Shown here in pieces: positions 1,958 through 30,992 of a stretch of 41,096 nt of DNA. Both the position numbers and the translations under genes were made by a program. Position 1 is the stretch's first letter, and each line of letters opens with the position of its first letter. The notes below the pieces were generated by a model. The model did not search any database. It was not told the DNA's origin and was given only the letters and a program-made list of their open reading frames with translations. Source of the DNA: a virus (lineage: Duplodnaviria > Caudoviricetes); IMG/VR virus record IMGVR_UViG_3300030708_001584, positions 1 to 41,096 of that record. The stretch is one strand, 5' to 3'.

Positions 1958-2090
1958 ACAAAGTTAGTGCCATATGGTTTGAAATATGATATTATGAAAT
2001 GTATTGAATAATATCTTATGAATACCTGATAAATAAGGTTTAATTACATACCAACCATATGCTCCCGTAACTTTGTGATTTAATGGGGGC

Positions 2091-2198
2091 CTATTGGCCC
2101 GTTTGGTCATTTTGGGTGCAAAAGCACCTATAACAGACGGTGCGACCGCAGTTTTTCGATATTACCACATTACACATATCACATCTTGACTTCATCAT
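2091..2198 (-). CDS. 35-aa Zn-finger microprotein (MMKSRCDMCNVVISKNCGRTVCYRCFCTQNDQTGQ), module 2
   Basis: Manual translation; GGTGA RBS, two CxxC pairs, GGGCC/GGCCC hairpin at the stop. Confidence 0.7.
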   Translation of the reverse strand: MMKSRCDMCNVVISKNCGRTVCYRCFCTQNDQTGQ

Positions 2199-2381
2199 TA
2201 TTCACCTTTTGTCTCATTGTATCTGTATCTCTCATTAATACATCTATTTATGATGGGATTCCTCAAAGTTACAATCATATGGTTCTACTTTGAAAGAAGC
2301 CTAATTTATACATTAAACACTAAGTAGGTTGCGTCATCGAGAAAGGCTGATGCAGGAGAAACAACAAAAAGGTGATAAAAA

Positions 2382-2930
2382 ATGAGTAAAACAAGTTATT
2401 ACATGGATGATGAAAAATGGGATGCTACCCGTAGTAAGGTAGACGCTTGGATAGAGCAAAACGGAGATAATCCGATTGTGCCTGTTATTACGGGTATTCT
2501 AGACCAAGCACAAGAAAATGCAGATTCGCGTAAGCGATTATGGGGTGCTATTACAGCAATGTTCAGCACTGTTGATAATTCCCCAATTAAGAAGGGTAAG
2601 CCCAGAGAATCGCTACCTGACGCGGTTGAAGTGCGAATTAGCGGTATTGTTGCTAATGTTACAGCAAACAAGGCACAGGAATATATGGATAATCCATATT
2701 GTGCGCTTGAAAGCCGTAGTCGTGTTACAGCCACTTCAGAGGTCTTTTTCGGAACAGCAGAAGAATACGGTGAATACCACGGTAATCGCGTAGAACGAAT
2801 GCTAATCGACGCATATAGAGCGCATGTTAAGAATGATGAAAATGCCCGCGTATTGTGGGATGGTGAGTCAATGAATGGTGATATGCCTGATTTGCAGGTA
2901 ATTGCTCCAAATACGGAGGAAGAGGAGTAA
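2382..2930 (+). CDS. hypothetical protein, paralog of 4783-5289 (module 3)
   Basis: 182-aa ORF with GGTGA RBS; shares NADSR, SPI, LP, WDG and terminal EEE with the paralog. Confidence 0.88.
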   Translation: MSKTSYYMDDEKWDATRSKVDAWIEQNGDNPIVPVITGILDQAQENADSRKRLWGAITAMFSTVDNSPIKKGKPRESLPDAVEVRISGIVANVTANKAQEYMDNPYCALESRSRVTATSEVFFGTAEEYGEYHGNRVERMLIDAYRAHVKNDENARVLWDGESMNGDMPDLQVIAPNTEEEE

Positions 2931-3025
2931 TCCTAGCATTGTAAGTCCTTTCTCGGTGGCCCCCTTATGGGGGTTTGCCATTACATTAGACAAAGTAGCA
3001 AACCATATGGTGTGACTTTGTTTAA

Positions 3026-3037
3026 CCCTATTATATA
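3026..3037 (+). promoter_or_regulatory. archaeal TATA-like promoter CCCTATTATATA just inside the ACTTTG arm
   Basis: Similar elements at 4703-4713 (+), 4428-4440 (-) and 2245-2257 (-), each oriented towards the module's gene. Confidence 0.55.
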
Positions 3038-3057
3038 GAAATAAATGAATAAAGACC

Positions 3058-3357
3058 ATGAGAGCCATAACACGCGACGCAGTAAGAGCATTCTGCAACA
3101 ACTATAAGTTTAAGCGGGATAATACCGAAATAAGAATCATTGAAAGAGATAATTATATTATAACACAAATGCGACTTCATGGGAATGTTATTGCGGAAAA
3201 GATGCCGAGCGGGTTTTATATCTCAACGTGTGGATGGGCAACAAATACAACAAAGGAACGCTTAAACGGTTTTAACGGGGTAAATATCGTTCAACGTAAT
3301 TATGAGTGGTATTTGAACGGTGAACACTGGAACGGTCAAAGGATAAAGGTGTTTTGA
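3058..3357 (+). CDS. phage-type hypothetical protein (LHGNxIA...CGWxTxTTKERLN), module 4
   Basis: 99-aa ORF; motif recalled from small viral proteins; probably leaderless. Confidence 0.8.
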   Translation: MRAITRDAVRAFCNNYKFKRDNTEIRIIERDNYIITQMRLHGNVIAEKMPSGFYISTCGWATNTTKERLNGFNGVNIVQRNYEWYLNGEHWNGQRIKVF

Positions 3358-3363
3358 ACATAT

Positions 3364-3379
3364 TGACCCTTTAGGGTCA
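3364..3379 (+). terminator. hairpin ending module 4
   Basis: TGACCC-TTTA-GGGTCA. Confidence 0.5.
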
Positions 3380-3457
3380 TATTATTCTCAAAGTTTTATG
3401 ACCATATGGTTGCACTTTGAGCAAGACGATAATAGACCATTTAATATAATTAAGACG

Positions 3458-3703
3458 GTGATAACCATTAGAACAGCATACCAGATATATAGGAACAATA
3501 AGCCAACCAGTGAGTTTTACTCATACAAAAGGGAGGCACAGAACGAAATTGATAGCAGAAATAAGTTTGCTATCCGCCAAATCATGAAAGATGTAAATCG
3601 AATGAATGGCGCACTTAGAGGCCGAAATCGAGAAGCCTTTGAAGAAGCGGTTGATTCCGTAGCAAACCCACCTTACACAATCGTAGAAATACGTATTGAG
3701 TAA
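3458..3703 (+). CDS. hypothetical protein (module 5), start uncertain
   Basis: The ORF-track ATG 3398 lies inside the repeat site; GTG 3458 or non-canonical ATT 3467 after GGTGA are more plausible. Confidence 0.65.
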   Translation: MITIRTAYQIYRNNKPTSEFYSYKREAQNEIDSRNKFAIRQIMKDVNRMNGALRGRNREAFEEAVDSVANPPYTIVEIRIE

Positions 3704-3849
3704 TTTGGGATGCTTAGGCAGTTCTTAGAACGTAAGTCCTAAATGTCCCAATTTGGGTCATAATCACAAAGTTATGACCATATGGTTTGACTTTGCACAA
3801 AGCCTGAAATAGAGATAAAACAGGAATATCAGGAGCGTAAACACTTATA

Positions 3850-4165
3850 CTCGGTTAAGTTGGGTTTCAAGGCTACTACCAGTTATCGCGCGATTCTGGC
3901 CCTTTACTCCTACCCAATTAACTTTCAAATGCAATACTCCGTCAATCCCTGCTATCCGTCAAGGGGGAATATGAAAAAGAGTTTAACGGACTCTTTGTAA
4001 GACAATCATTATCATAATCAGAACATCGTTTATGATTTAACACCGTTCAATATCTGCTTTACGTTTTTATTTAACCCTTTGATACGCATATGGGCGGCAA
4101 GCGTTACACGGCGAAAAACGATAATCCGTGACTAACTAATTATATTCAAAGCAGATAGTTTGAAT
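3850..4165. ncRNA. putative structured RNA in module 6
   Basis: No long ORF; helices GTTAAGTTGGGT/ACCCAATTAAC, AAAGAGT/ACTCTTT, CACGG/CCGTG, and TATCTGCTTT (4051-4060) with AAAGCAGATA (4148-4157). Confidence 0.45.
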
Positions 4166-4166
4166 A

Positions 4167-4271
4167 TTAACTATTGTAAGGCCAATAGCAATGAACATTG
4201 GAACAGACAGGTAATCCATCTTCATCTCCAATAATATCATAATTGCATAAATGGCATTTAGAGCGTTTCAT
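4167..4271 (-). CDS. 34-aa Zn-finger microprotein (MKRSKCHLCNYDIIGDEDGLPVCSNVHCYWPYNS), module 6
   Basis: Manual translation; GAGGTG RBS; ATGA overlap with the upstream ORF. Confidence 0.7.
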   Translation of the reverse strand: MKRSKCHLCNYDIIGDEDGLPVCSNVHCYWPYNS

Positions 4272-4351
4272 TCGTAACACCTCTTGCATTTAGTATTAAC
4301 AATCCTATAACACTTAGAACAAAACTTAATAGATTCAAACCAATCATACAT
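4268..4351 (-). CDS. 27-aa Zn-finger microprotein (MYDWFESIKFCSKCYRIVNTKCKRCYE), module 6
   Basis: Manual translation; GGAGG RBS; two CxxC pairs. Confidence 0.65.
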   Translation of the reverse strand: MYDWFESIKFCSKCYRIVNTKCKRCYE

Positions 4352-4782
4352 CTGGAACCCTCCAATTCACCAAAAGAAAGGAAGGCGGTCAGTAATAGGT
4401 CATTCATGTCTCTATTACTGTTTGATGTATATGAATAGGGTTTCTCAAAGTAAAACCATATGGTAGTATTAAGAAAAATAATAATTTATTATTTTGAATC
4501 TATTAGCACAGTCGGAACTGCTGGTCTGATTGTCTAGAATCCTAGACACTTATCCGGCCACTTTTGACTACTTTATGTATCTTAACCTATTCGTAATAAC
4601 TAGCCATAATGGTTTATTTTTTACACCAATTCGCTATTTCTCATTTCTCACGATTCTCATAGACATTCAACAACCATATGCTCCTAACTTTGTAAAAAGG
4701 AGCCTATTATATACCCCTGTAAAGTGGGAGTATTGTCCAGCGAGGACAGGAAGAACATAACTTAGTAAAACAGGTGATTAAA

Positions 4783-5289
4783 ATGAATGACGCAGAATGG
4801 AATAGTATGAAAGTAGAACTTGAAGAGTTCTTTAGTGTATCAACACAGGACACTTCAGCAGTTCAGGGTGTTTATGCAGGATTAGCCGCTATGGGCGATT
4901 CTAACGCAGATTCCCGAACTGGAGCAAAGAAGGCACTACAAGCATTATTGAAGGACTTTGATGGTTCTCCAATTAATAGGCGTGGAAGCCGTGGAAACCT
5001 ACCTACCACAGTAGCAGTAGTTCTTGACCAACTATCGGTTGAACTACGTGATGCAATTGCAGCCGCTTTTGACTCAAACCCTAACTTTAGGGCTATTGTC
5101 CACCGACACGGAAAAGCCGTTTCTAACGGTGCTTCTCCGAATTATACGGATGGTGCAGAGTTTGGTGCTTATATCGCTGGAAAGGCGCGAAAGGCTGGTG
5201 CAAGCCTTTATTCCTCCGGTGATTGGGATGGGTCATTAGACACCTTAGTTTCTACTATCACTGAAACGGAGGTTTACGAAGAGGAATGA
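4783..5289 (+). CDS. hypothetical protein, paralog of 2382-2930 (module 7)
   Basis: AGGTGA RBS before ATG 4783; motifs shared with the paralog. Confidence 0.88.
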   Translation: MNDAEWNSMKVELEEFFSVSTQDTSAVQGVYAGLAAMGDSNADSRTGAKKALQALLKDFDGSPINRRGSRGNLPTTVAVVLDQLSVELRDAIAAAFDSNPNFRAIVHRHGKAVSNGASPNYTDGAEFGAYIAGKARKAGASLYSSGDWDGSLDTLVSTITETEVYEEE

Positions 5290-5314
5290 TTCTTCCTTTT
5301 CGTTCTCGCTGGAC

Positions 5315-5373
5315 AAACCCCCTAATCTGGGAATTGGGCTTAATTGCCTGATTCTCAGGTTAGGGTTTTTTTT
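5315..5373 (+). terminator. long hairpin plus T-tract ending module 7
   Basis: CCCTAATCTGGGAATTGGGC pairs with GCCTGATTCTCAGGTTAGGG, followed by a T run. Confidence 0.75.
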
Positions 5374-5711
5374 ATTTTCAAAGTATAAAACAACCATATG
5401 GTCCTAAAAAAATAAATTAGGCATTACTATATTTCGCCGCCATAGGCCCCCCTCTGACTATAAATACCTCACGCAGCACGTAGATATGTTGAGCCTAATT
5501 AGTTATTATGCCTTTCAAACACGCTTATTTCCTAGTTACTATGTATAAACCCTCTACTTATTGGTCTTACATATTACCCTACTCACAATTGGTCTTTCTT
5601 AAGGTCAATTCCAATTAACATTAGTATAATATTACATACTTCATACTGAATACTCTTATATTAATACTAATATTGATATTAACGTATGCGTCTAATATCT
5701 AATGCAACTGG

Positions 5712-6022: not shown

Positions 6023-6919
6023 ATGAAAACAATAGTAACGAAAGAAAAATATAATGGCTGGTTATGCAGATTTAAAAATAGCAAGATTAAATTGTGGAGA
6101 TTTATTATTGATAGTAAGGCCGAAGTAATTAAGCAAACTATGAGTAGATGGGGCGTTTCTGAAAAAACAGCCAATGAATATTATGCTAAATATATTCCTG
6201 ATTTGATTGCTTTGTTAGCAACTGATAAAGAAGAAAGAGAACAATATATTCAAGAACACTATTTTGCCTGTAATAGAGCAAAATATGAGGCTCATCTTTT
6301 GAAACAAAAGAGGATTGAAAAAGGCCTTAAGGTGAATTATCAGAAGGATGAAAAACCATCGGTAAAAAAATACAACAAATGGTCTAATGAAGAGTTAGAA
6401 CAATTAAAACTATTATATGAGGTCTACAAAGACGAAAGAGGATGGCCGAAAAAAGCAGCCAAAGTTCTTAATGAAGCATTTCATGAAGGTTTAGAAATAA
6501 GAACGGCATCGAAAGTGTATTCTAGATATAATTTAATGTTGATGAAGGAAGAAAAATTAGCACAAAAAAGCGACTTACCCAAAGTTAATAAGGGTGCTAA
6601 ACGAGAGAATGATGAGATTATTCTAGACGCTACAAAGGAGGCGAAAGTAATGAGTTTTAATGATACACAGAAATCTATATCAGTTATGTGTGATAGAATT
6701 AAAACTATGTTACTTGCTAAGAATAAACAATATGGGGATTCAGTGATGAGTCCTATTCGTGTATTCTCTAAGGCTGATAAAACAGAACAATTGAAGGTGC
6801 GAATTGATGATAAAATTAATCGTCTTCTTCAAGGCGACGAAAGTATTGAATCTGATGTTGATGTAATTGATGATTTGATTGGTTATCTTATTCTATTGAG
6901 AATATCAATGGAGGAATAA
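6023..6919 (+). CDS. multidomain protein: Myb-like HTH plus C-terminal DUF1599/Nmad1-like helical nucleotide-hydrolase domain
   Basis: KWSNEELEQLK; KNKQYGDS...RIDDKINRL...DLIGYLILL. Confidence 0.65.
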   Translation: MKTIVTKEKYNGWLCRFKNSKIKLWRFIIDSKAEVIKQTMSRWGVSEKTANEYYAKYIPDLIALLATDKEEREQYIQEHYFACNRAKYEAHLLKQKRIEKGLKVNYQKDEKPSVKKYNKWSNEELEQLKLLYEVYKDERGWPKKAAKVLNEAFHEGLEIRTASKVYSRYNLMLMKEEKLAQKSDLPKVNKGAKRENDEIILDATKEAKVMSFNDTQKSISVMCDRIKTMLLAKNKQYGDSVMSPIRVFSKADKTEQLKVRIDDKINRLLQGDESIESDVDVIDDLIGYLILLRISMEE

Positions 6920-7594: not shown

Positions 7595-7671
7595 GGGTCT
7601 ATGGCTTAGTCAGGTAGAGCGACGGGCTTTTAATCCGTTGGTCGGGGGTTCAAATCCCTCTAGACCCACCA
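7595..7671 (+). tRNA. tRNA-Lys(UUU) with encoded CCA
   Basis: Acceptor GGGTCTA/TAGACCC, anticodon loop CTTTTAA, T-loop TTCAAAT. Confidence 0.95.
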
Positions 7672-7677
7672 TATTTT

Positions 7678-7773
7678 AACTCGGTTTTGTGCCAAATAAA
7701 AAAGATAAAGACCTTCTCGTTACGTCGCTGTAACGGCAATAGGGGTTGCTTTCAACCGAAATCTTTCCGAGTT
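7678..7773 (+). ncRNA. unknown structured ncRNA family, copy 1
   Basis: AACTCGG/CCGAGTT stem, TTTTGTGCCAAATAAA insert, AAAGAT/ATCTTT stem. Confidence 0.7.
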
Positions 7774-7777
7774 TTTC

Positions 7778-7845
7778 AAGGTTTTGCACAGTAATAAATT
7801 GAATGGGGGCCAAAACGAACGCATGTGCGTAATTCAATTTTCCTT
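7778..7845 (+). ncRNA. unknown structured ncRNA family, copy 2 (divergent)
   Basis: AAGG/CCTT stem, TTTTGCACAGTAATA insert, AATTGAAT/ATTCAATT stem. Confidence 0.55.
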
Positions 7846-7854
7846 AACTTTCAC

Positions 7855-7935
7855 GCGGTTTTGTATCGAATAAAAACGATAAAGGGTTGGTAGCCAGATA
7901 ATAGGGGTTTTCTTCTTGAACCGAAATCGTTCCGC
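7855..7935 (+). ncRNA. unknown structured ncRNA family, copy 3
   Basis: GCGG/CCGC stem, TTTTGTATCGAATAAA insert, AACGAT/ATCGTT stem. Confidence 0.7.
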
Positions 7936-7945
7936 ATTTTAATTC

Positions 7946-8035
7946 AAACTGGGTTTTGCAGCAAATAAAAACTAGAAAACTTGGCGTCTTTCACTGTTGA
8001 TAGTAGAGTCCTTTCTATGAACTAGTTCCCAGTTT
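7946..8035 (+). ncRNA. unknown structured ncRNA family, copy 4
   Basis: AAACTGGG/CCCAGTTT stem, TTTTGCAGCAAATAAA insert, AACTAG/CTAGTT stem. Confidence 0.7.
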
Positions 8036-8047
8036 ATTAAACATAAA

Positions 8048-8130
8048 GCAGGTATATCCGAGTTGGTCAAAGGAGCCGGAGTTAAGTTCCGGTGCAAAAT
8101 GCTTCGTAGGTTCGAATCCTACTACCTGCA
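8048..8130 (+). tRNA. tRNA-Leu(UAA) with long variable arm
   Basis: Acceptor GCAGGTA/TACCTGC, CCGGA-GTTAAGT-TCCGG anticodon arm, GTAGGTTCGAATCCTAC T-arm. Confidence 0.92.
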
Positions 8131-8140
8131 CTTATATTCT

Positions 8141-8254
8141 ATTACTGGGTTTTGTGCCAATTAAAAACGAAAAAGTGGTTTTTCATCGAGAATTCTTTCA
8201 AGGAGTTCGGGAAGGCAATAAGGGACGTGGGTGTCCAAATTCGTTCCCAGTAAT
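8141..8254 (+). ncRNA. unknown structured ncRNA family, copy 5
   Basis: ATTACTGGG/CCCAGTAAT stem, TTTTGTGCCAATTAAA insert, AACGAA/TTCGTT stem. Confidence 0.7.
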
Positions 8255-8961: not shown

Positions 8962-9537
8962 ATGAATATATTTGTTTTAGATATGAGTCCAGAAATTAGT
9001 GCAAAGCATATGGTAGATAAGCATGTAGTTAAAATGCCTACTGAAAGTATGCAAATGTTATCTACTAATTTGAATCATTTTGGTATTGTAAGTCCATATA
9101 AACCAGTAATGTTAAATCATCCTTGCACTATTTGGGCAAGACAAAGTTATGAAAATCATGAGTGGTTATTAGAACATTGTCTAGCATTATGTAAAGAATA
9201 TACTGCTAGGTATGGTAAAACACATGCAGTTGAAAATACCTTTAATCAGTATTGGGATGAACTTCATCAACAAACACTTTATGTTGATTGGCCTACTATT
9301 GGTTTAACTCCATTTGCTATTGCTATGGATGATGTTTATCGTGTAGAACAAAACGAAGAAGAAGATGATTTTTCTTTTGCTATTCGTTCTTATCATAATT
9401 ATTATTGTTATGGTAAAAATCATATTGCTAATTGGAAAATACCAGAACACAGACCTAATTGGTTTGAAAAGAAATATTTTAAAAGAAAGAAAACAACTAA
9501 TGTAAAAAGAATTAGTTGGCCACCGAGGAGAGATTAA
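8962..9537 (+). CDS. pyrimidine-dimer DNA glycosylase (DenV)-like protein
   Basis: MNIFVLD...DKHVVKMP.E..QMLST...NHPCTIWAR...EYTARYGKTH. Confidence 0.7.
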   Translation: MNIFVLDMSPEISAKHMVDKHVVKMPTESMQMLSTNLNHFGIVSPYKPVMLNHPCTIWARQSYENHEWLLEHCLALCKEYTARYGKTHAVENTFNQYWDELHQQTLYVDWPTIGLTPFAIAMDDVYRVEQNEEEDDFSFAIRSYHNYYCYGKNHIANWKIPEHRPNWFEKKYFKRKKTTNVKRISWPPRRD

Positions 9538-15328: not shown

Positions 15329-16486
15329 ATGGCAGATTTTGTAGAAGCGTTATTCGATACATTTGATGATTCTAGTAAAAGAATTAGCACTGAATTTGAA
15401 TATACCTTTACTTACGAAGGTAATGTTAAATGGTCTAATCATCGTAATACAATACGTTTTAGAAGAGACGGTGAAAATTTTGATACCTCTTGGCTAACTC
15501 AATTTATGGGTATTCAAAGAGGAAGAACTGTTGATGGTATTCATCAATTTAAGATAGATGATTTTATTTTACATGTTGAGCGAAGAAATAAAACATATTA
15601 TGTTATGGGTTCTTTATTAAATAAATCAGAGACAGTTCTATTGATTACTAGAGTTTTATATAAATCATGCTTTAGTAGGGATTTAACAGAGTTATTAGAA
15701 TATACAATGAAAGCAATTTCATTCCCGACTAATGTAATGTATGCAATAGAAAATAGAGCGCCTTATAAGTTTGTAAAGGATTTAAATTGGGTAGAGTCAA
15801 GATTAAATGTTGAAGCAATTTCTATGACTGAATGTGCTATTGAAATTTCAGATGGTATTTGGGCTAATATATCTATTAAAGACCTAGATACATTTGTTAA
15901 TGCATTTAAAGGGCAAGGTTCAAAACGTTCTAAGAAGTGGAAGAATTGTTCTCCTAAGAAATTATGGAAAACTCTAATGGGTAAAGAACCTAAAGAAACT
16001 GAATTGAATTTGATGGTTGAGTTTTTAGAACAGAATAGAACTCAAGAGATTGTTGAAAAGAGAGCAAGAGAACTAATGGATGAAATGTTAGTAGATTATC
16101 CAGACAGGATTAAAATCATAACAAAGTCAGACAGAACATACATGTTAGTTAAGGGTAAAATAACTGATTGGATTATTACAGATGAAGCATATAAAACACA
16201 AACACAAAAGGTTTCTACTTTCTTATTTAGTAGAGATGAAGATAAAAGAGGAAGACCTTTTGGTGATGGTTATTTATATCCTAAAGGCGGAATATGTATT
16301 GATAATGTAAGCACAACTTCTAGTGTTGGCGACCAATTTGCTGCGAGAGCATTTGCATTACTAAATGATAATATGACTTTACAATTAGTTAGCACCATTA
16401 GACCTTATGTTTATGATAAGAGTAAAGAAGTAATTTCAGATAGATTAGATTGGGATTACGATTATAGTAAGGAGGAATCAGAATGA
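15329..16486 (+). CDS. hypothetical protein; C-terminal domain with a GGICID motif (candidate E2-like or DUF4132 C-terminal-like domain)
   Basis: 385-aa ORF; function inferred only from motif and context. Confidence 0.7.
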   Translation: MADFVEALFDTFDDSSKRISTEFEYTFTYEGNVKWSNHRNTIRFRRDGENFDTSWLTQFMGIQRGRTVDGIHQFKIDDFILHVERRNKTYYVMGSLLNKSETVLLITRVLYKSCFSRDLTELLEYTMKAISFPTNVMYAIENRAPYKFVKDLNWVESRLNVEAISMTECAIEISDGIWANISIKDLDTFVNAFKGQGSKRSKKWKNCSPKKLWKTLMGKEPKETELNLMVEFLEQNRTQEIVEKRARELMDEMLVDYPDRIKIITKSDRTYMLVKGKITDWIITDEAYKTQTQKVSTFLFSRDEDKRGRPFGDGYLYPKGGICIDNVSTTSSVGDQFAARAFALLNDNMTLQLVSTIRPYVYDKSKEVISDRLDWDYDYSKEESE

Positions 16487-17391
16487 AATGTAGTGAATGT
16501 AATAGTAGAAAATTTGAATATGATGAAAGATTACAGCAGAATTGTTGTATTGATTGTGGATTTGTAATGGTTGAATCAGCATTTGAAGAAACAGTTCAGA
16601 TTAAATATGGAGATGATGATACTTTTAGGGCTGGAGATAAAGGAACTTTAGGTTCTCTTATTGGTGAATCGCAACCAGAATCTAAACACCTAAAAAGAGC
16701 ATTAAGAACCACTAGAGCAAGAGTTCAATCTAATATATTTACAAAGAATGGTGAAAGAGAAGTAAGGTTTTATAACGTATTAAAGGTTCTTTTGTCTAAT
16801 TATAATACGAGTAATGGTGAATCTATTAAAAGAATAAGTGATGATATTATAACTTATTTTAGGCGTTTAGATAAAAGTCATGATTTGAGGGGTTATACCA
16901 ATGATGAAAGAGCAGCCGCTTTGAGTTACATAGTATTTAGAGAACATGGTTGGCCTGTATCTTTACATTCTATATCTAAACATTCTGATGTAGAAAGAGG
17001 TAGAGTTTCAAAGGTAGCAAGAACTTTTGCTAGAAAATTAGGTAAAACTACGATATTAAGTCAAGTTCCCTTTGTTTCTTGGTGTGAAAGAGAAGCGAAT
17101 ATTATGGGCGGAGAAGAGTTTGGAATTGCTATAATTAATATTGCACCATTAATGCAGAATTTTTTTATGGAATATGGCTTTCCACTTACTAGAGTTCAAG
17201 TAGCCACTACAATGTATTTGTGTAATTTATTGTGTGGTTTTAAATATACACAGAAAAATATCGGTAAACAATTGAAAACTTATCCAATTTCAATAAGAGA
17301 TAGTTTACAAAGGATTTGCGCTCAATTAAATATTAAGCGCGATGATTTACTCACTATGAGTATGGATGATTTTATTAATGGAGTGTTTTGA
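16483..17391 (+). CDS. tfb: transcription factor TFB/TFIIB-like protein
   Basis: N-terminal CSEC...CIDCG ribbon, LGSLIG B-reader region, two cyclin-like repeats (AAALSYIVFR, TQKNIG). Confidence 0.85.
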   Translation: MKCSECNSRKFEYDERLQQNCCIDCGFVMVESAFEETVQIKYGDDDTFRAGDKGTLGSLIGESQPESKHLKRALRTTRARVQSNIFTKNGEREVRFYNVLKVLLSNYNTSNGESIKRISDDIITYFRRLDKSHDLRGYTNDERAAALSYIVFREHGWPVSLHSISKHSDVERGRVSKVARTFARKLGKTTILSQVPFVSWCEREANIMGGEEFGIAIINIAPLMQNFFMEYGFPLTRVQVATTMYLCNLLCGFKYTQKNIGKQLKTYPISIRDSLQRICAQLNIKRDDLLTMSMDDFINGVF

Positions 17392-17392
17392 A

Positions 17393-17968
17393 ATGAGAAA
17401 AATAATGATTATAGGAGCAGGAGGAATTGGTAGTTTTCTAATTCCTTTACTAGATAGAACAGGGTTGTATGATATTACAGTGTTTGACCCAGATAAGGTT
17501 GAAACAAAGAATCTTACTTATCAAAACTTTAAGAAGGGTCATGTAGGACAAAATAAGGCTTTAGTTATGCGTCAAGAATATTCTAACGTAACACATGCTA
17601 GTCAATTTAAAGTTTTAACACCAAGTCAAATTAGCGGATATGATATTGTTGTTTGTTGTGCAGATAATTTAGATGTAAGAAGGCTTCTTTATCGTCAAGG
17701 TTTTGGTGAAGATACTAATTTAAAGTGGTTAGATACAAGAGCGCAAGGAAGAAATGGTGCTGTAATATCTTACAAAGTAGATAAAAATCTAGCAAGCACT
17801 CTTTTAGCCGGTAAAGAAGGTTCTTTTTCCTGCCAAGGAGAAAACTGGGATGGTAGTGCTAAGGGAGTAAATTATATGCAAGTGGTTGTAGCGGGTCTTG
17901 CTATTCAATGGTTACAAAATTACTTCATTGATAATGAAGTATTTGAATATAAGGTGGTGAATGCCTAA
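17393..17968 (+). CDS. ThiF/E1-like ubiquitin-activating adenylyltransferase
   Basis: IIGAGGIGS, FDPDKVETKNLTYQ, CADN, SCQ. Confidence 0.9.
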   Translation: MRKIMIIGAGGIGSFLIPLLDRTGLYDITVFDPDKVETKNLTYQNFKKGHVGQNKALVMRQEYSNVTHASQFKVLTPSQISGYDIVVCCADNLDVRRLLYRQGFGEDTNLKWLDTRAQGRNGAVISYKVDKNLASTLLAGKEGSFSCQGENWDGSAKGVNYMQVVVAGLAIQWLQNYFIDNEVFEYKVVNA

Positions 17969-27332: not shown

Positions 27333-28093
27333 AATTTAATTGTGATGCAAAGGAACTTATGGACGCAATAGAATCAACAACATTAAAAGGTAAATACAAA
27401 TATGGTGACGGATTAAAATCTAAATCTATTGGTGACTACTGTTATATGAAAATAACTGGTAATGAATTAACATTACATAATTCAGATAATACAACAGCAG
27501 TAAGAGTAAAGTTAGAAGTGGATGGTAATGAATCCGGTCAATGCACAGTAGAAATATCTAGAATGATTAAGTATTTGAAGAATATTAATGGTAGTATTAC
27601 CTTTACTAAGACAGACCATATTAAGATTAATTCCGGTAATGCTAATGTAAGTTTACCCGTCGTGGTTGTTCACCCTAGTATAGATATGATTACAAAGCAT
27701 GAAAATAGAATTAAAGATATTGAGTTCGGAACTCCTGAATATTTACCTGCTTGGGGCAAAGTAGAATACGAAGCAGGTATTGGTTTAAATTCTAAAAATA
27801 TTCAAGAGACAATGAAAGCAGTTGAAAGTGTAGGTTCTGGTGTATTTAAGTTAGATTTTGATGGCGAATCATTAACTATATCATCATCTAAATTGAATGA
27901 ATCTTATTCAGAAGTCCTTGAGTTTGGTGAAAAACTATGGGCTGCTTATGGAGAAGAAGCAACAGTAGAAGTTGTATTACCATTTCATAATTTTTATGAT
28001 GGTATTTTTATGATGTATTTGAAGGATGAATGTCCAATTTTGTTTGATGATGGAAAGTGTTCTATTATTCGTGCGCCTTATATGGGGAATTAA
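27329..28093 (+). CDS. DNA sliding clamp (PCNA-like)
   Basis: 254 aa, beta-rich, ends in IRAP, next to PolB and RFC. Confidence 0.75.
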   Translation: MKFNCDAKELMDAIESTTLKGKYKYGDGLKSKSIGDYCYMKITGNELTLHNSDNTTAVRVKLEVDGNESGQCTVEISRMIKYLKNINGSITFTKTDHIKINSGNANVSLPVVVVHPSIDMITKHENRIKDIEFGTPEYLPAWGKVEYEAGIGLNSKNIQETMKAVESVGSGVFKLDFDGESLTISSSKLNESYSEVLEFGEKLWAAYGEEATVEVVLPFHNFYDGIFMMYLKDECPILFDDGKCSIIRAPYMGN

Positions 28094-28094
28094 T

Positions 28095-29759
28095 ATGATA
28101 GTTTGTTATACTGATAGTGAAAATATTATTCGTCTTAGATGGAGAGATGAAGAAGGTAATAGAAAATCAGAAGATGTTTCTGACTTTAGACCTTATTTCT
28201 TTATTAAATCAGATGAGATGGAATATCCTTATTATACTATTAAACAGGGAAGGACTAAAGTTGCAGTTAATTATCAATATGAACATGGCGATTGGGTTAA
28301 TCTTAATGGCCAATCTTTAAAGAAAGTTATAATAGAAAAATCATATGATATGAAAACTGCTAAAGCAAAATGGGAAGATACTTATGAAGCAGATGTTAAA
28401 TTTCATTATAGATATTGTGTTGATAAATTACATGATATGCCAGAATATAAATTAAAGAAATGGTATTGGGATATGGAATGGTTGCCATCAGAACATGAAC
28501 ATGGTGATGCAATTACTACAATTGTAATGTATGATAATTATACAGAAAAATATACTACTTATGTTTGGTTTCCAGAAGAACGTCTTGTAGAATTTAGTGA
28601 AGATATTAGAGTTTTCAATACTGAACAAGAACTTTTACTGGCTTTTGCTGGCGATATGATGAAGGCTGACCCCGATATGCTTATTGCATGGTTTGGTCTT
28701 AAATTCGATTTACCTAAATTAATAGAAAGAATGGCTCATAATAGTATTGACCCTAGAATATTATCCCCTTATCATGAAGTTAAAGGTGTTGGATTTAGAA
28801 ATAGTAAGTTTACTATTGGTAAAGTAGTAAATAATTACGGACCTATTCAACAACCTATTCGTGGTCGTATTACTCTAAACTTAGATTTGGCTTTTGAAAG
28901 ACAATGGAATGATGCTCAAAGAGGAACACTACCTTCTCTTTCATTAGATTATATTTCTACTGAAGTTTTAGGTGAAAAGAAATTAGTGTCTGAAAAGTTC
29001 CCAGATAAAAATGAGTTTTTCTTGAGGGCTTGGTTAGAAGATACAGAAACTTATCTAGATTATGCAAAGAAAGATGTTGAATTGATGGTAAGGATTGATG
29101 AGGAAAATTACACTTCCGAAGCAATTTTATCATTACAACGATTACTAAAAGCACCTTTTGATGCATGTTTTTATGCTAGTAATATGGGAAGTATTTATTT
29201 TATGAGAAATGCTACATGGAAAGCACCAACTGGAAAGAAGGTAGAAAACCGTGTTGAATATGAAGGGGCTATGATTTATGACCCACTTTCTGAAGGAACT
29301 AACGGATTACATTTTAATGTGGCTGCTTTTGATTTTGCAGGTCTATATCCTTCTATGATGGTAGCAAGAAATATTAGTTGGGAAACAAAGAGTGTAAATC
29401 CTACTGAATTTGCTGTTAATATACTTACACCTAGAGATTTCTCAGAATGTAAGCATAAATCTATGTTATATTACAAAACAGATAAATTAGGATTATTACC
29501 TTCCGCAGTTCTAGAATTGAAAGAATTACGGAATGACTATAAGCGTAGAATGAAAGAGGCTTATGTTAAAGAAGACAAAGCAGAATACGCTAAATGGAAT
29601 AACAATCAAATGGCCGTGAAAAGATTAATGGCTTCATTTTATGGAGTTACTGCTTTTCAAGGGTTTGGTTGGGCAGATGTTGATATTGCTGCATCAATAA
29701 CTGCTAGTGCTAGAGAAGCAATAAGAGAAGCAGCATTTAAAGCAAAGGAGATGGAATAA
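28095..29759 (+). CDS. polB: family B DNA polymerase, N-terminal part (exonuclease, motifs A and B)
   Basis: WDME, KFD, YAKKD, DFAGLYPS, KRLMASFYG. Confidence 0.93.
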   Translation: MIVCYTDSENIIRLRWRDEEGNRKSEDVSDFRPYFFIKSDEMEYPYYTIKQGRTKVAVNYQYEHGDWVNLNGQSLKKVIIEKSYDMKTAKAKWEDTYEADVKFHYRYCVDKLHDMPEYKLKKWYWDMEWLPSEHEHGDAITTIVMYDNYTEKYTTYVWFPEERLVEFSEDIRVFNTEQELLLAFAGDMMKADPDMLIAWFGLKFDLPKLIERMAHNSIDPRILSPYHEVKGVGFRNSKFTIGKVVNNYGPIQQPIRGRITLNLDLAFERQWNDAQRGTLPSLSLDYISTEVLGEKKLVSEKFPDKNEFFLRAWLEDTETYLDYAKKDVELMVRIDEENYTSEAILSLQRLLKAPFDACFYASNMGSIYFMRNATWKAPTGKKVENRVEYEGAMIYDPLSEGTNGLHFNVAAFDFAGLYPSMMVARNISWETKSVNPTEFAVNILTPRDFSECKHKSMLYYKTDKLGLLPSAVLELKELRNDYKRRMKEAYVKEDKAEYAKWNNNQMAVKRLMASFYGVTAFQGFGWADVDIAASITASAREAIREAAFKAKEME

Positions 29760-30050: not shown

Positions 30051-30992
30051 ATGGATGTAGTTTACGGACATACTGATTCTATTTATGTAAAAATTGATTC
30101 CGTTGAACAAGCACAAGAAGTTGTTGAAGAAATTAATGAACATGTTAAAACTAAATTTCCAAATGTTTTAGGTTTAGAGGAACACCCAGTATCTTTAGAG
30201 TTTGAAAAGTATTATCAAACATTAGGCGTAGGCACTACTAAAAATAGGAATGCTGGATTAATTTCGTGGAAAGATGGTAATTGGTTAGAAGAACCAGAGT
30301 TTATCATGACTGGATTTACTGCTAAAAGAGTATCTATTACTCCATTAGCAAAAAGAACACAATTAGATGTATTAAGAATGTGGGTGGAAAATAAACCTAA
30401 ATCAGAAATAGTATCTTATTGTCGTTCTATTTATAATGATGTTCTAAAGGGTGATATTGAACTTAGCGATATTACTATGAGAACTAGATATAGACCAGAA
30501 AGATTTACGATGAAATGTAATGGTAATATTGCTAATGGTTGGAATACTAAGAAATGTAAAAAAACTATTACTTACGATGAAGCAATCAAATTATCTGATT
30601 TACAAAATAATGGTGCAACATTAAGATGCCCTGATTGTGATGGTAGTTATTGGACTACATTGGAAGGTAAAAGGCTTTCATTAGGAAGTGCAACAGAAGG
30701 TGCTGTAATACATGATATTATTAACCCTGATAATAAGATTACTGACTCATTTCTTTATATCAAAATAAGGAATTCAAATATTGTATTTACCAATCCTTTA
30801 AATGGTTTACCTAGAGAAGCAAAATATATTGCATTTAAGACAGTAGATGAATTACCAAAATATGAACCTGATTGGGCGCATTATGCTGAATCAGTAGTTA
30901 AGAAATCTGAACCAATATTCAGAGCAATGGAATGGGATATTACAGAAATAAAATTAGATAATAAACAAAGAAGTTTGGATGAGTGGTTTTAA
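30051..30992 (+). CDS. polB: family B DNA polymerase, C-terminal part (motif C, thumb, PIP box)
   Basis: YGHTDSIY, LEFEK, KNRNAG, QRSLDEWF. Confidence 0.92.
   Translation: MDVVYGHTDSIYVKIDSVEQAQEVVEEINEHVKTKFPNVLGLEEHPVSLEFEKYYQTLGVGTTKNRNAGLISWKDGNWLEEPEFIMTGFTAKRVSITPLAKRTQLDVLRMWVENKPKSEIVSYCRSIYNDVLKGDIELSDITMRTRYRPERFTMKCNGNIANGWNTKKCKKTITYDEAIKLSDLQNNGATLRCPDCDGSYWTTLEGKRLSLGSATEGAVIHDIINPDNKITDSFLYIKIRNSNIVFTNPLNGLPREAKYIAFKTVDELPKYEPDWAHYAESVVKKSEPIFRAMEWDITEIKLDNKQRSLDEWF

Follow-up and report, generated by a model that had tools for sequence, protein, structure and literature searches.

Compact RNA elements such as xrRNA and ENE are built from U-rich and A-rich strands and form pseudoknots or U-A-U triple helices. 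The C4 RNA of phages P1 and P7 is processed by RNase P. In the accessible part of the source on this antisense RNA (PMC12197685), C4 is described as a virus-encoded structured RNA that carries short antisense stretches in its loops and blocks translation near the ribosome-binding site (RBS), which makes it a precedent for the mode of action proposed below; PreS, treated in the same source, is a further precedent. In Methanosarcina mazei, the archaeal small RNA sRNA162 uses a single-stranded linker to mask the RBS and start codon of a trans target (PMC4152357, available sections). A functional small RNA can also be housed in a canonical tRNA intron, as illustrated by the archaeal box C/D guide in the tRNA-Trp intron, which is released by the splicing endonuclease (PMC4090602, available sections). 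Lastly, HDV-like ribozymes, including theta ribozymes, have a pseudoknot core in which a hairpin precedes an RAA-type junction, and are associated with viral tRNA genes (PMC10879173, available sections). The RNA units described here share, or are proposed to share, such features with the cited systems.

The units were found in the window, i.e., the whole stretch of 41,096 nucleotides that was analysed, which is the linear, 43%-complete virus record IMGVR_UViG_3300030708_001584. It encodes a split family B DNA polymerase (PolB halves at 28026-29759 and 30051-30992), as well as RFC, an ATP-dependent ligase, an ERCC4 nuclease and a class II ribonucleotide reductase. According to the accessible part of PMC5434244, a split PolB is diagnostic of group B magroviruses, which carry tRNA genes too. 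Because of the split PolB and the archaeal replication genes, the window is assigned by gene content to the group B magroviruses, viruses of Marine Group II archaea, and this assignment in turn leads us to infer a host among the Poseidoniales. Marine Group II archaea, like the viruses that infect them, are abundant and have not been brought into culture; in the papers searched, no account was found of how these viruses take over their host. Other features of the window are worth recording. The palindrome CCATATGG or a near variant occurs about eight times in intergenic positions ahead of short early-region genes (1960-5410) and is possibly a promoter or operator element. At 16483-17968, a TFIIB zinc-ribbon protein (PF08271) adjoins a ThiF/E1-like gene (PF00899), a pair that is kept in the related genome G001; such a viral TFB-like factor could redirect transcription of the host. 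G001 additionally encodes a histone-fold protein within its magrovirus replication block (L393:14168-14614; PF00808, E 7e-5).

The sequence-only reading had reported five copies of a structured RNA interleaved with tRNAs. All five are present on the + strand where they had been placed (7678-8254), in a gene-free stretch that starts after tRNA-Lys(UUU) and surrounds tRNA-Leu(UAA), so that tRNA-Lys precedes unit 1 and tRNA-Leu separates units 4 and 5. The elements of a unit follow a fixed order: P1, UUU(UG), the 5′ strand of the knot, an A-rich linker, P2 (starting with AA), AAA(A), a variable loop, the 3′ strand of the knot, AUAR, the P4 hairpin, RAA, P2′ and P1′. The array and its borders comprise the following features.

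6023-6919, + strand: upstream landmark gene with a C-terminal phrog_1485 domain, bordering the RNA cluster in many relatives
7595-7671, + strand: tRNA-Lys(UUU), head of the RNA cluster
7678-7773, + strand: unit 1, type A, with P1 at 7678-7684/7767-7773 and UUUUG at 7685-7689
7690-7693/7735-7738, + strand: pseudoknot of unit 1, with the A-rich linker at 7694-7700 and P2 at 7701-7706/7761-7766
7707-7734, + strand: loop of unit 1, with a conserved internal hairpin; AUAGG-P4-GAA at 7739-7760
7778-7845, + strand: unit 2, divergent and without P4, with P1 at 7778-7781/7842-7845 and the pseudoknot at 7786-7790/7824-7828
7796-7804/7832-7840, + strand: P2 of unit 2; loop at 7805-7823, with a conserved GGGRGCC motif at its start
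7855-7935, + strand: unit 3, type A, with P1 at 7855-7858/7932-7935 and the pseudoknot at 7864-7867/7897-7900
7875-7880/7926-7931, + strand: P2 of unit 3; loop at 7881-7896 and tail with P4 at 7901-7925
7946-8035, + strand: unit 4, of type B, in which the guide-like signal is found, with P1 at 7946-7953/8028-8035
7959-7962/7996-7999, + strand: pseudoknot of unit 4; P2 at 7970-7975/8022-8027 and tail with P4 at 8000-8021
7976-7995, + strand: variable loop of unit 4, a candidate guide, unstructured (folding energy of the loop by itself 0)
8048-8131, + strand: tRNA-Leu(UAA), between units 4 and 5
8141-8254, + strand: unit 5, type A, with P1 at 8141-8149/8246-8254 and the pseudoknot at 8155-8158/8214-8217
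8166-8171/8240-8245, + strand: P2 of unit 5; loop at 8172-8213, with two small hairpins, and tail with P4 at 8218-8239
8962-9537, + strand: downstream landmark gene, PF03013 pyrimidine-dimer glycosylase-like (phrog_624), bordering the RNA cluster in many relatives

For the phrog_1485-domain gene at 6023-6919, there is no hint that it works together with the RNAs. One contig of run X1, a run whose kind of data is not established, covers the entire array, with differences.

Several details of the sequence-only reading hold. The 16-nt insert reported for four copies matches units 1, 3, 4 and 5, flanks included, with 0 mismatches, at a chance mean of 0.71 for the pattern at up to 3 mismatches, and the listed inner stem sequences are all present as given. 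A stem-insert-stem descriptor finds the 5 units in the window, vs 1 match in 30 dinucleotide shuffles of the whole window; on the shuffled array region it finds a single unit in 1/1000 shuffles. Others have to be amended. The AATA(A)GG-hairpin-RAA module does occur in copies 1, 3 and 5, but is not restricted to them, as unit 4 has it too. Copy 2 is indeed divergent; it moreover represents a subtype with a 5-bp pseudoknot and without P4, which has its own compensatory changes in L025 and L113 and scores only 11.5 bits with the model R2. The insert itself had been described as one-sided, i.e., unpaired, whereas four of its bases pair with the four bases just 5′ of AUAR, forming the pseudoknot.

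Folding energy is a poor guide to this structure. Minimum-energy folds of single units are no better than those of shuffled sequences (z from -1.3 to +0.7) under a folding model that cannot form pseudoknots; since such pseudoknot-blind energies are unremarkable, the structure rests on covariation. Covariation had been claimed within one genome, and the homologs covary strongly as well. In an alignment of 23 units, chosen partly for pairing, 93% of the cells pair and 15/19 pairs vary on both sides, including 4/4 knot pairs, a level reached by 0/500 shuffles. A cleaner test is provided by a pattern that specifies no knot, inner-P2 or P1 pairing. This pattern yielded 46 IMG/VR loci, in 46/46 of which the full structure could be parsed, giving 31 unique units. 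Among these, the knot pairs at 92/93 positions, vs a fraction of 0.79 with shuffled partners (maximum 0.89), and the unspecified P2 positions (3-6) pair in 124/124 cases vs 0.57 shuffled, while in 30/31 units the knot is capped by a purine pair, A-G in some and G-A in others. The fold is accordingly read as a pseudoknot that two stacked stems close off. Both UUU and AA/UU hardly vary, with AA opening P2 in 86/88 units, a figure to be read with the fact that the descriptor itself demands the first A of P2 and most of the U run. Base triples between the invariant UUU and the AA/UU pairs of P2 are likely. This weakens the earlier suggestion that the U-rich insert binds Sm-like proteins, as the insert is partly paired and its UUU probably engaged in triples.

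Rfam 15 has no match for the window at E<=1 except tRNAs, and nothing but tRNAs at E<=2 for eight related loci. The search of Rfam that had been proposed thus leaves standing the description of an uncatalogued structured RNA with a constant scaffold and a variable loop, to which the homologs add strong covariation. K-turn, Sm-site, hammerhead, twister and pistol readings are ruled out by the covariation register together with Rfam. Judged from its sequences, this RNA family is real, uncatalogued and widespread among viruses of marine archaea, and its pseudoknot fold is well supported.

The fold bears directly on the possibility, also raised by the sequence-only reading, that the units are self-cleaving or ligating ribozymes that process the tRNA cluster like theta ribozymes. 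HDV-like ribozymes have the same helix order, knot-P2-insert-knot′-P4-RAA-P2′, which in the units is followed by the covarying pairs of knot, P2 and P4, and the units are linked to tRNAs. Nevertheless, no catalytic nucleotide is conserved: the base before GAA, the equivalent of HDV C75, is U in 36/55 and C in 19/55 units and pairs with G, while the catalytic position of theta ribozymes cannot be U (PMC10879173, available sections). There is no conserved P3/L3 with P1.1, the corresponding place being taken by a hypervariable loop without conserved stem, the knot has only 4 bp, and divergent members keep no AUA/GAA bases. Position argues in the same direction, as units begin at least 6 nt past a tRNA end or far from any tRNA, many having no tRNA nearby; in the window, the G1-equivalent site lies about 18 nt after tRNA-Lys, while theta-type cleavage needs <=5 nt. 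The ribozyme reading is thus weakened and is considered very improbable.

The family is not confined to the window. In total, 88 distinct units of 65-152 nt were parsed from magrovirus-like contigs, where they occur in arrays of one to five, beside tRNAs, alone between genes or, in one lineage, as a tRNA-Lys intron; tRNAs accompany them in 19 homolog loci among those checked by ARAGORN or by sequence. The model R2 has matches in 12/50 related records. A looser descriptor, with 2 false matches in 0.89 Mb of shuffled sequence, finds units in 14/15 whole records, of which 12 had been chosen for their R2 matches and two others, R2-negative, also had units; one fragment is without. Among the carriers, 21/22 records tested match the PolB of the window, 20 of them strongly, and some of these enzymes are unsplit and more distant; the RNA family therefore likely spans several magrovirus groups.

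No convincing cellular copy was found, host genomes being covered by one strict pattern alone. With this pattern, GTDB gave 22 matches, none convincingly structured and none titled Poseidoniales, and of the genomes around G051, 6/301 have a match vs 7 control matches. As the G051 group has no close match to the viral tRNA-Leu or chaperonin, the host is taken to lie outside it. A stretch of Poseidoniales DNA encoding a surface protein shares three words with the query, but is not among the matches of any of the three unit-only queries and was set aside. Among the best 20 of 581 matches in GenBank phages, only tRNAs were found. The literature search retrieved nothing on RNA motifs of magroviruses, on structured or pseudoknot RNA of Marine Group II viruses, on leaderless starts in Poseidoniales or on antisense pseudoknot RNAs of archaeal viruses. 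In the searchable part of PMC11706807, the words non-coding RNA, intron and Rfam are all absent, and four words for the family are absent from six supplement files of a survey of viral structured RNAs (PMC10690425), in which an unnamed entry is possible.

Several other RNA elements deserve mention. Relatives of unit 2 in L040, L042, L043, L087 and L101 lie between tRNA-Leu and the main unit, and have a one-sided GGGRGCCAAAA bulge and a hairpin, without the UUU/pseudoknot insert. A subfamily with a short constant loop (G044:25091-25162, G045:56461-56533, G046:35408-35480, G002:83122-83198 and L282:3291-3355) carries UCAUCUCC in the P4 loop instead, which resembles the 16S anti-Shine-Dalgarno tail; here, a different arm may have taken over the presented sequence. 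At G001:49159-49226 (- strand), well away from the array, a single unit-like structure of atypical form has CACCUCC in its tail; it was excluded from the loop statistics. In other magroviruses, non-coding islands of 0.6-1.2 kb hold several different closed-stem RNA units with the spacer word AUYACAYUC between them; they are situated about 1.1 kb upstream of the PF03013 gene in L259, L262, L264, L272, L273, L282, L287 and L291, and further islands lie at L420:10650-12000 and L446:3450-4110. Eight loci with such islands gave no Rfam match. In L259 and L272, the island upstream of the PF03013 gene has a unit with the hammerhead-core-like CUGACGAG, to which L259 adds GACGAAAC, but a hammerhead is rejected as the stems do not fit. 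GUAAGUCCU, in the loop of that unit, recurs in the window near 2941 and 3733.

Archaeal tRNA splicing is an established process that excises bulge-helix-bulge introns. In the related virus G029, the same tRNA as at the head of the cluster in the window, tRNA-Lys, has by ARAGORN a 100-nt intron, which lies at position 37/38 and consists entirely of one unit. A full bulge-helix-bulge can be read from the sequence, with two 3-nt bulges and a 4-bp central helix, and the outer helix is the P1 of the unit; L509 and L534 have the same arrangement. This member thus has the form of an archaeal canonical tRNA intron, and on the strength of established archaeal splicing it is predicted to be excised and probably circularised. 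The intron location suggests a stand-alone RNA. Elsewhere, an AYUC word lies within 15 nt of 34/88 units on the 3′ side and of 40/88 on the 5′ side, vs 10% of random windows, and also 3′ of several viral tRNAs. Its presence next to about 40% of the units suggests shared processing.

The settings of the units also bear on a possible role in cis, in which the unit would be a knotted roadblock against a 5′-to-3′ exonuclease, or a processing signal, for the RNA just downstream. An RBS word and a start codon follow within 45 nt in 43/88 units, and a P1-closed pseudoknot is a compact, ring-like topology. Yet in one lineage the unit resides in a tRNA intron that is cut out, units in tandem arrays protect only each other, and the bias of the loops described below is left unexplained, the loops showing no particular pairing with the gene downstream (62 loops, p=0.36). 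A stabilising role in cis is therefore clearly unlikely.

What varies between units is the loop. Type B is the commonest subtype; its loop is unfolded, hypervariable and about 9-13 nt long without AAAA. The folding energy is 0 in 19/23 type B rows, and in held-out loci the loop measures 13-17 nt including AAAA in 19/24. Paralogs have completely different loops, whereas orthologs retain some of the loop cores even as their P4 loops drift. In the discovery set, CAU is the top trinucleotide (14/29 loops vs 5.7 expected; cluster-weighted 56% vs 24%, p=0.001), and 23 type B rows, one of them a duplicate, resemble a matrix of viral start regions (p=0.003). CAU alone does not replicate in 24 held-out loops (25% vs 18%, p=0.23). 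The same loops are enriched in CAU/CAC (58% vs 28%, p=0.001), UCAY (33% vs 9%, p=0.001) and anti-RBS words (29% vs 13%, p=0.01), while the P4 tails of the held-out set, used as control, have no excess of any of these three. CAU/CAC falls in the last 4 nt of 16/51 type B loops vs 4.1 expected with the last base held fixed, a set of 51 rows in which 4 are wrongly parsed type A rows, 2 are duplicates and one is a long unit of doubtful status; among held-out rows only, the count is 7/25 (p=0.001). Orthologs are not independent, and weighting by P2 type keeps this 3′-end signal for B2 and weakens it for B1 (p=0.035-0.12). P4 loops are pyrimidine-rich too, so that base composition alone is no proof, and the sharing of loop words across scaffolds was discarded as support, being also high in the tail control.

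The last loop base is a pyrimidine in 29/31 units. Opposite the linker base, C occurs 15 times and U 14 times, and as both face it about equally, pairing does not explain this preference. The preference is consistent with targets that begin the pairing with a purine, for example at the 5′ end of a transcript or at a leaderless AUG/GUG. The loops of L094, L377 and L382, read as antisense, spell an RBS and a start codon at natural spacing, and the complement of the unit 4 loop (7976-7995) reads as a GUG start and four codons (M-K-D-A-K). GUG-type matches make up about 40%, above what leaderless starts would suggest, so that "start codon" and "RBS word" cannot be told apart by this measure. Type A loops, i.e., those of units 1, 3 and 5, have some folding of their own, and in unit 5 a small stem can include the CAU; the 3′-terminal signal is found in 0/8 type A loops, and their resemblance to start regions has p=0.12. 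Read as antisense, type B loops thus look like start codons and RBSs. An exposed single strand with a start-like complement, as in C4 and sRNA162, is found in type B and not in type A.

The same words could be read as bait. UCAY and CCUCC resemble the 16S anti-Shine-Dalgarno tail and a KH-type motif, and it has been considered that frame or loop binds and titrates a host protein, with as candidates a KH-domain protein reading YCAY or the 16S 3′ end, an Lsm protein, a tRNA-processing enzyme or an antiviral nuclease; this reading is unlikely. It is in line with the UCAY enrichment in held-out loops, with the 12-13 bp stack of P1 and P2, which is like a tRNA acceptor and T arm, and with the tRNAs that accompany units in 19 of the checked loci. 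However, a single protein could hardly account for such diverse loops, several paralogs with different loops are present together (5 in the window, 3 in G303), and ACAY and GCAY occur besides UCAY.

A search for targets within the viruses gave no signal. For 51 loops compared with 1973 predicted viral start regions, the longest exact match has a mean of 9.6 nt vs 9.3 shuffled, the only long match being the antisense strand of a unit itself. Duplex energies of 17 loops with their own genomes give a mean p of 0.50, and the whole-genome antisense excess for 31 loops is 0.15 nt. Individual matches elsewhere were inspected as well. The complement of the unit 4 loop has at least 124 matches in IMG/VR, 11 of them start-like and none shown to be archaeal; one beside an RBS, in L738, lies on a contig without the PolB of the window and is taken as chance. 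For 18 nt of the L094 loop, IMG/VR has 25 occurrences of the complement, 22 of which begin a reading frame of at least 39 codons, in apparently unrelated phages; the complement is thus a start sequence found in nature and not thereby a target. Three AT-rich matches of the L094 loop lie inside coding sequence, one of them read in detail, on contigs without the PolB of the window and were rejected. The guide role put forward by the sequence-only reading consequently finds statistical support in the loop bias and none in the antisense search of virus genomes.

Other RNAs of the host may also be considered as partners. The units would then guide the modification or cleavage of host rRNA, tRNA or other non-coding RNA, or serve as a polymerase template on which synthesis starts at the 3′ pyrimidine of the loop and stops at AAAA, a set of roles that is decidedly improbable. 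It would account for a loop length fixed at about 9-13 nt, a feature shared with archaeal box C/D guides, and for the tRNA-intron location, which recalls the tRNA-Trp intron guide (PMC4090602, available sections). An ACA-like word follows the stem in 17/88 units from several magroviruses, as ACAYUC, which is exact in 0/5 units of the window. Against it, complementarity to proxy archaeal 23S loci is 8.58 vs 8.57 nt (45 loops) and p=0.17 for 64 proxy tRNAs, both sets of proxies coming from another phylum than the host. There are no C/D boxes and no two-sided pocket: the RUGAUGA/CUGA K-turn of box C/D is not matched, the covarying register being AUA/GAA closed by G-Y and absent in divergent members, and the 3′ strand of a box H/ACA pocket is paired inside the RNA (P2 positions 3-6, 124/124). 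Pfam searches of 96/107 ORFs of a 96% complete carrier revealed no reverse transcriptase, Sm, Argonaute, Nop or TruB protein. As no viral partner family was found among these ORFs, any protein partner is likely one of the host. By exclusion, after the negative results on the genomes of the viruses themselves and on the proxies, we infer a target in the host.

The preferred reading, held tentatively and judged not far short of probable, is that the units are reprogrammable antisense RNAs that mask host translation starts, i.e., paralogs with one pseudoknotted frame and a swappable loop. It builds on what is observed, namely the fold, the family, its spread over magrovirus-like genomes, the canonical tRNA intron position in one lineage and the loop bias. 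The units would be cut from one tRNA-containing transcript by host tRNA-processing enzymes or, in the intron case, be released as a circle by splicing endonuclease and ligase. The frame, made up of two stacked stems that close both ends, the 4-bp knot and a side hairpin, would hold the short swappable loop. The invariant UUU would follow the major groove along the AA/UU pairs of P2, and A-minor contacts would dock the A-rich linkers, so that the frame would be made of RNA only and have its ends hidden. Between P2-AAAA and the knot, the loop would pair with 9-13 nt of a target, the first paired base of which is a purine, often of an AUG/GUG start or of a GUGA/GGAG RBS word. Each paralog would be aimed at a different gene, and a change of loop would re-aim it. 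Blocked ribosome loading would then shut down the translation of selected host genes or cause decay. Support for the loop-target steps (pairing, re-aiming and shut-off) comes from the sequences of type B only, which in the window is unit 4; a guide role of units 1, 3 and 5, with their partly folded loops, is less certain. A complete RNA-only guide system, with a nuclease-proof frame, arrays, a tRNA-intron circle and a 9-13 nt loop that clamps host mRNA 5′ ends, is possible but doubtful. Guide function is in short a testable proposal with replicated statistical support, for which the virus genomes and the rRNA and tRNA proxies yielded no target.

If true, this would be a microRNA-like arsenal in an archaeal virus, the loops of which would list the host genes that matter in infection. 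About 90 loops are already in hand; as guides, their matches in Poseidoniales would tell which host genes are attacked and which virus belongs to which host, and would reveal whether these archaea use leaderless starts. The 70-nt frame with its swappable loop, if it works as tRNA-intron cargo, could serve directly for knock-downs in archaea. Should the loops have no guide role, the units still form a new, sharply covarying pseudoknot family with a predicted natural circular form.

Compared to the known systems, the units share with xrRNA and ENE a compact pseudoknot and the U-rich and A-rich strands that likely form triples, but they have both ends in P1 and a hypervariable presented loop, and match neither in Rfam. 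Unlike HDV-like and theta ribozymes, they lack a conserved catalytic C, P3/L3 and a cleavage site at the tRNA 3′ end, and have an extra outer stem closing both ends. The intron copy differs from the tRNA-Trp intron guide in having no C/D boxes or K-turn, in being virus-encoded and in occurring as an intron in one lineage only. sRNA162 is, in the sections available of its source, one RNA of cellular origin that has neither the pseudoknotted frame nor arrays of paralogs nor a link to tRNAs. C4 has another fold, with no Rfam C4 match for the magrovirus units, and targets the phage's own ant mRNA according to the accessible part of its source, whereas no self target was found for the units; the magrovirus family moreover consists of paralogs with swappable loops in an archaeal virus. 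The fold thus belongs to no catalogued family, while the masking of a translation start has its precedent in C4 RNA and sRNA162.
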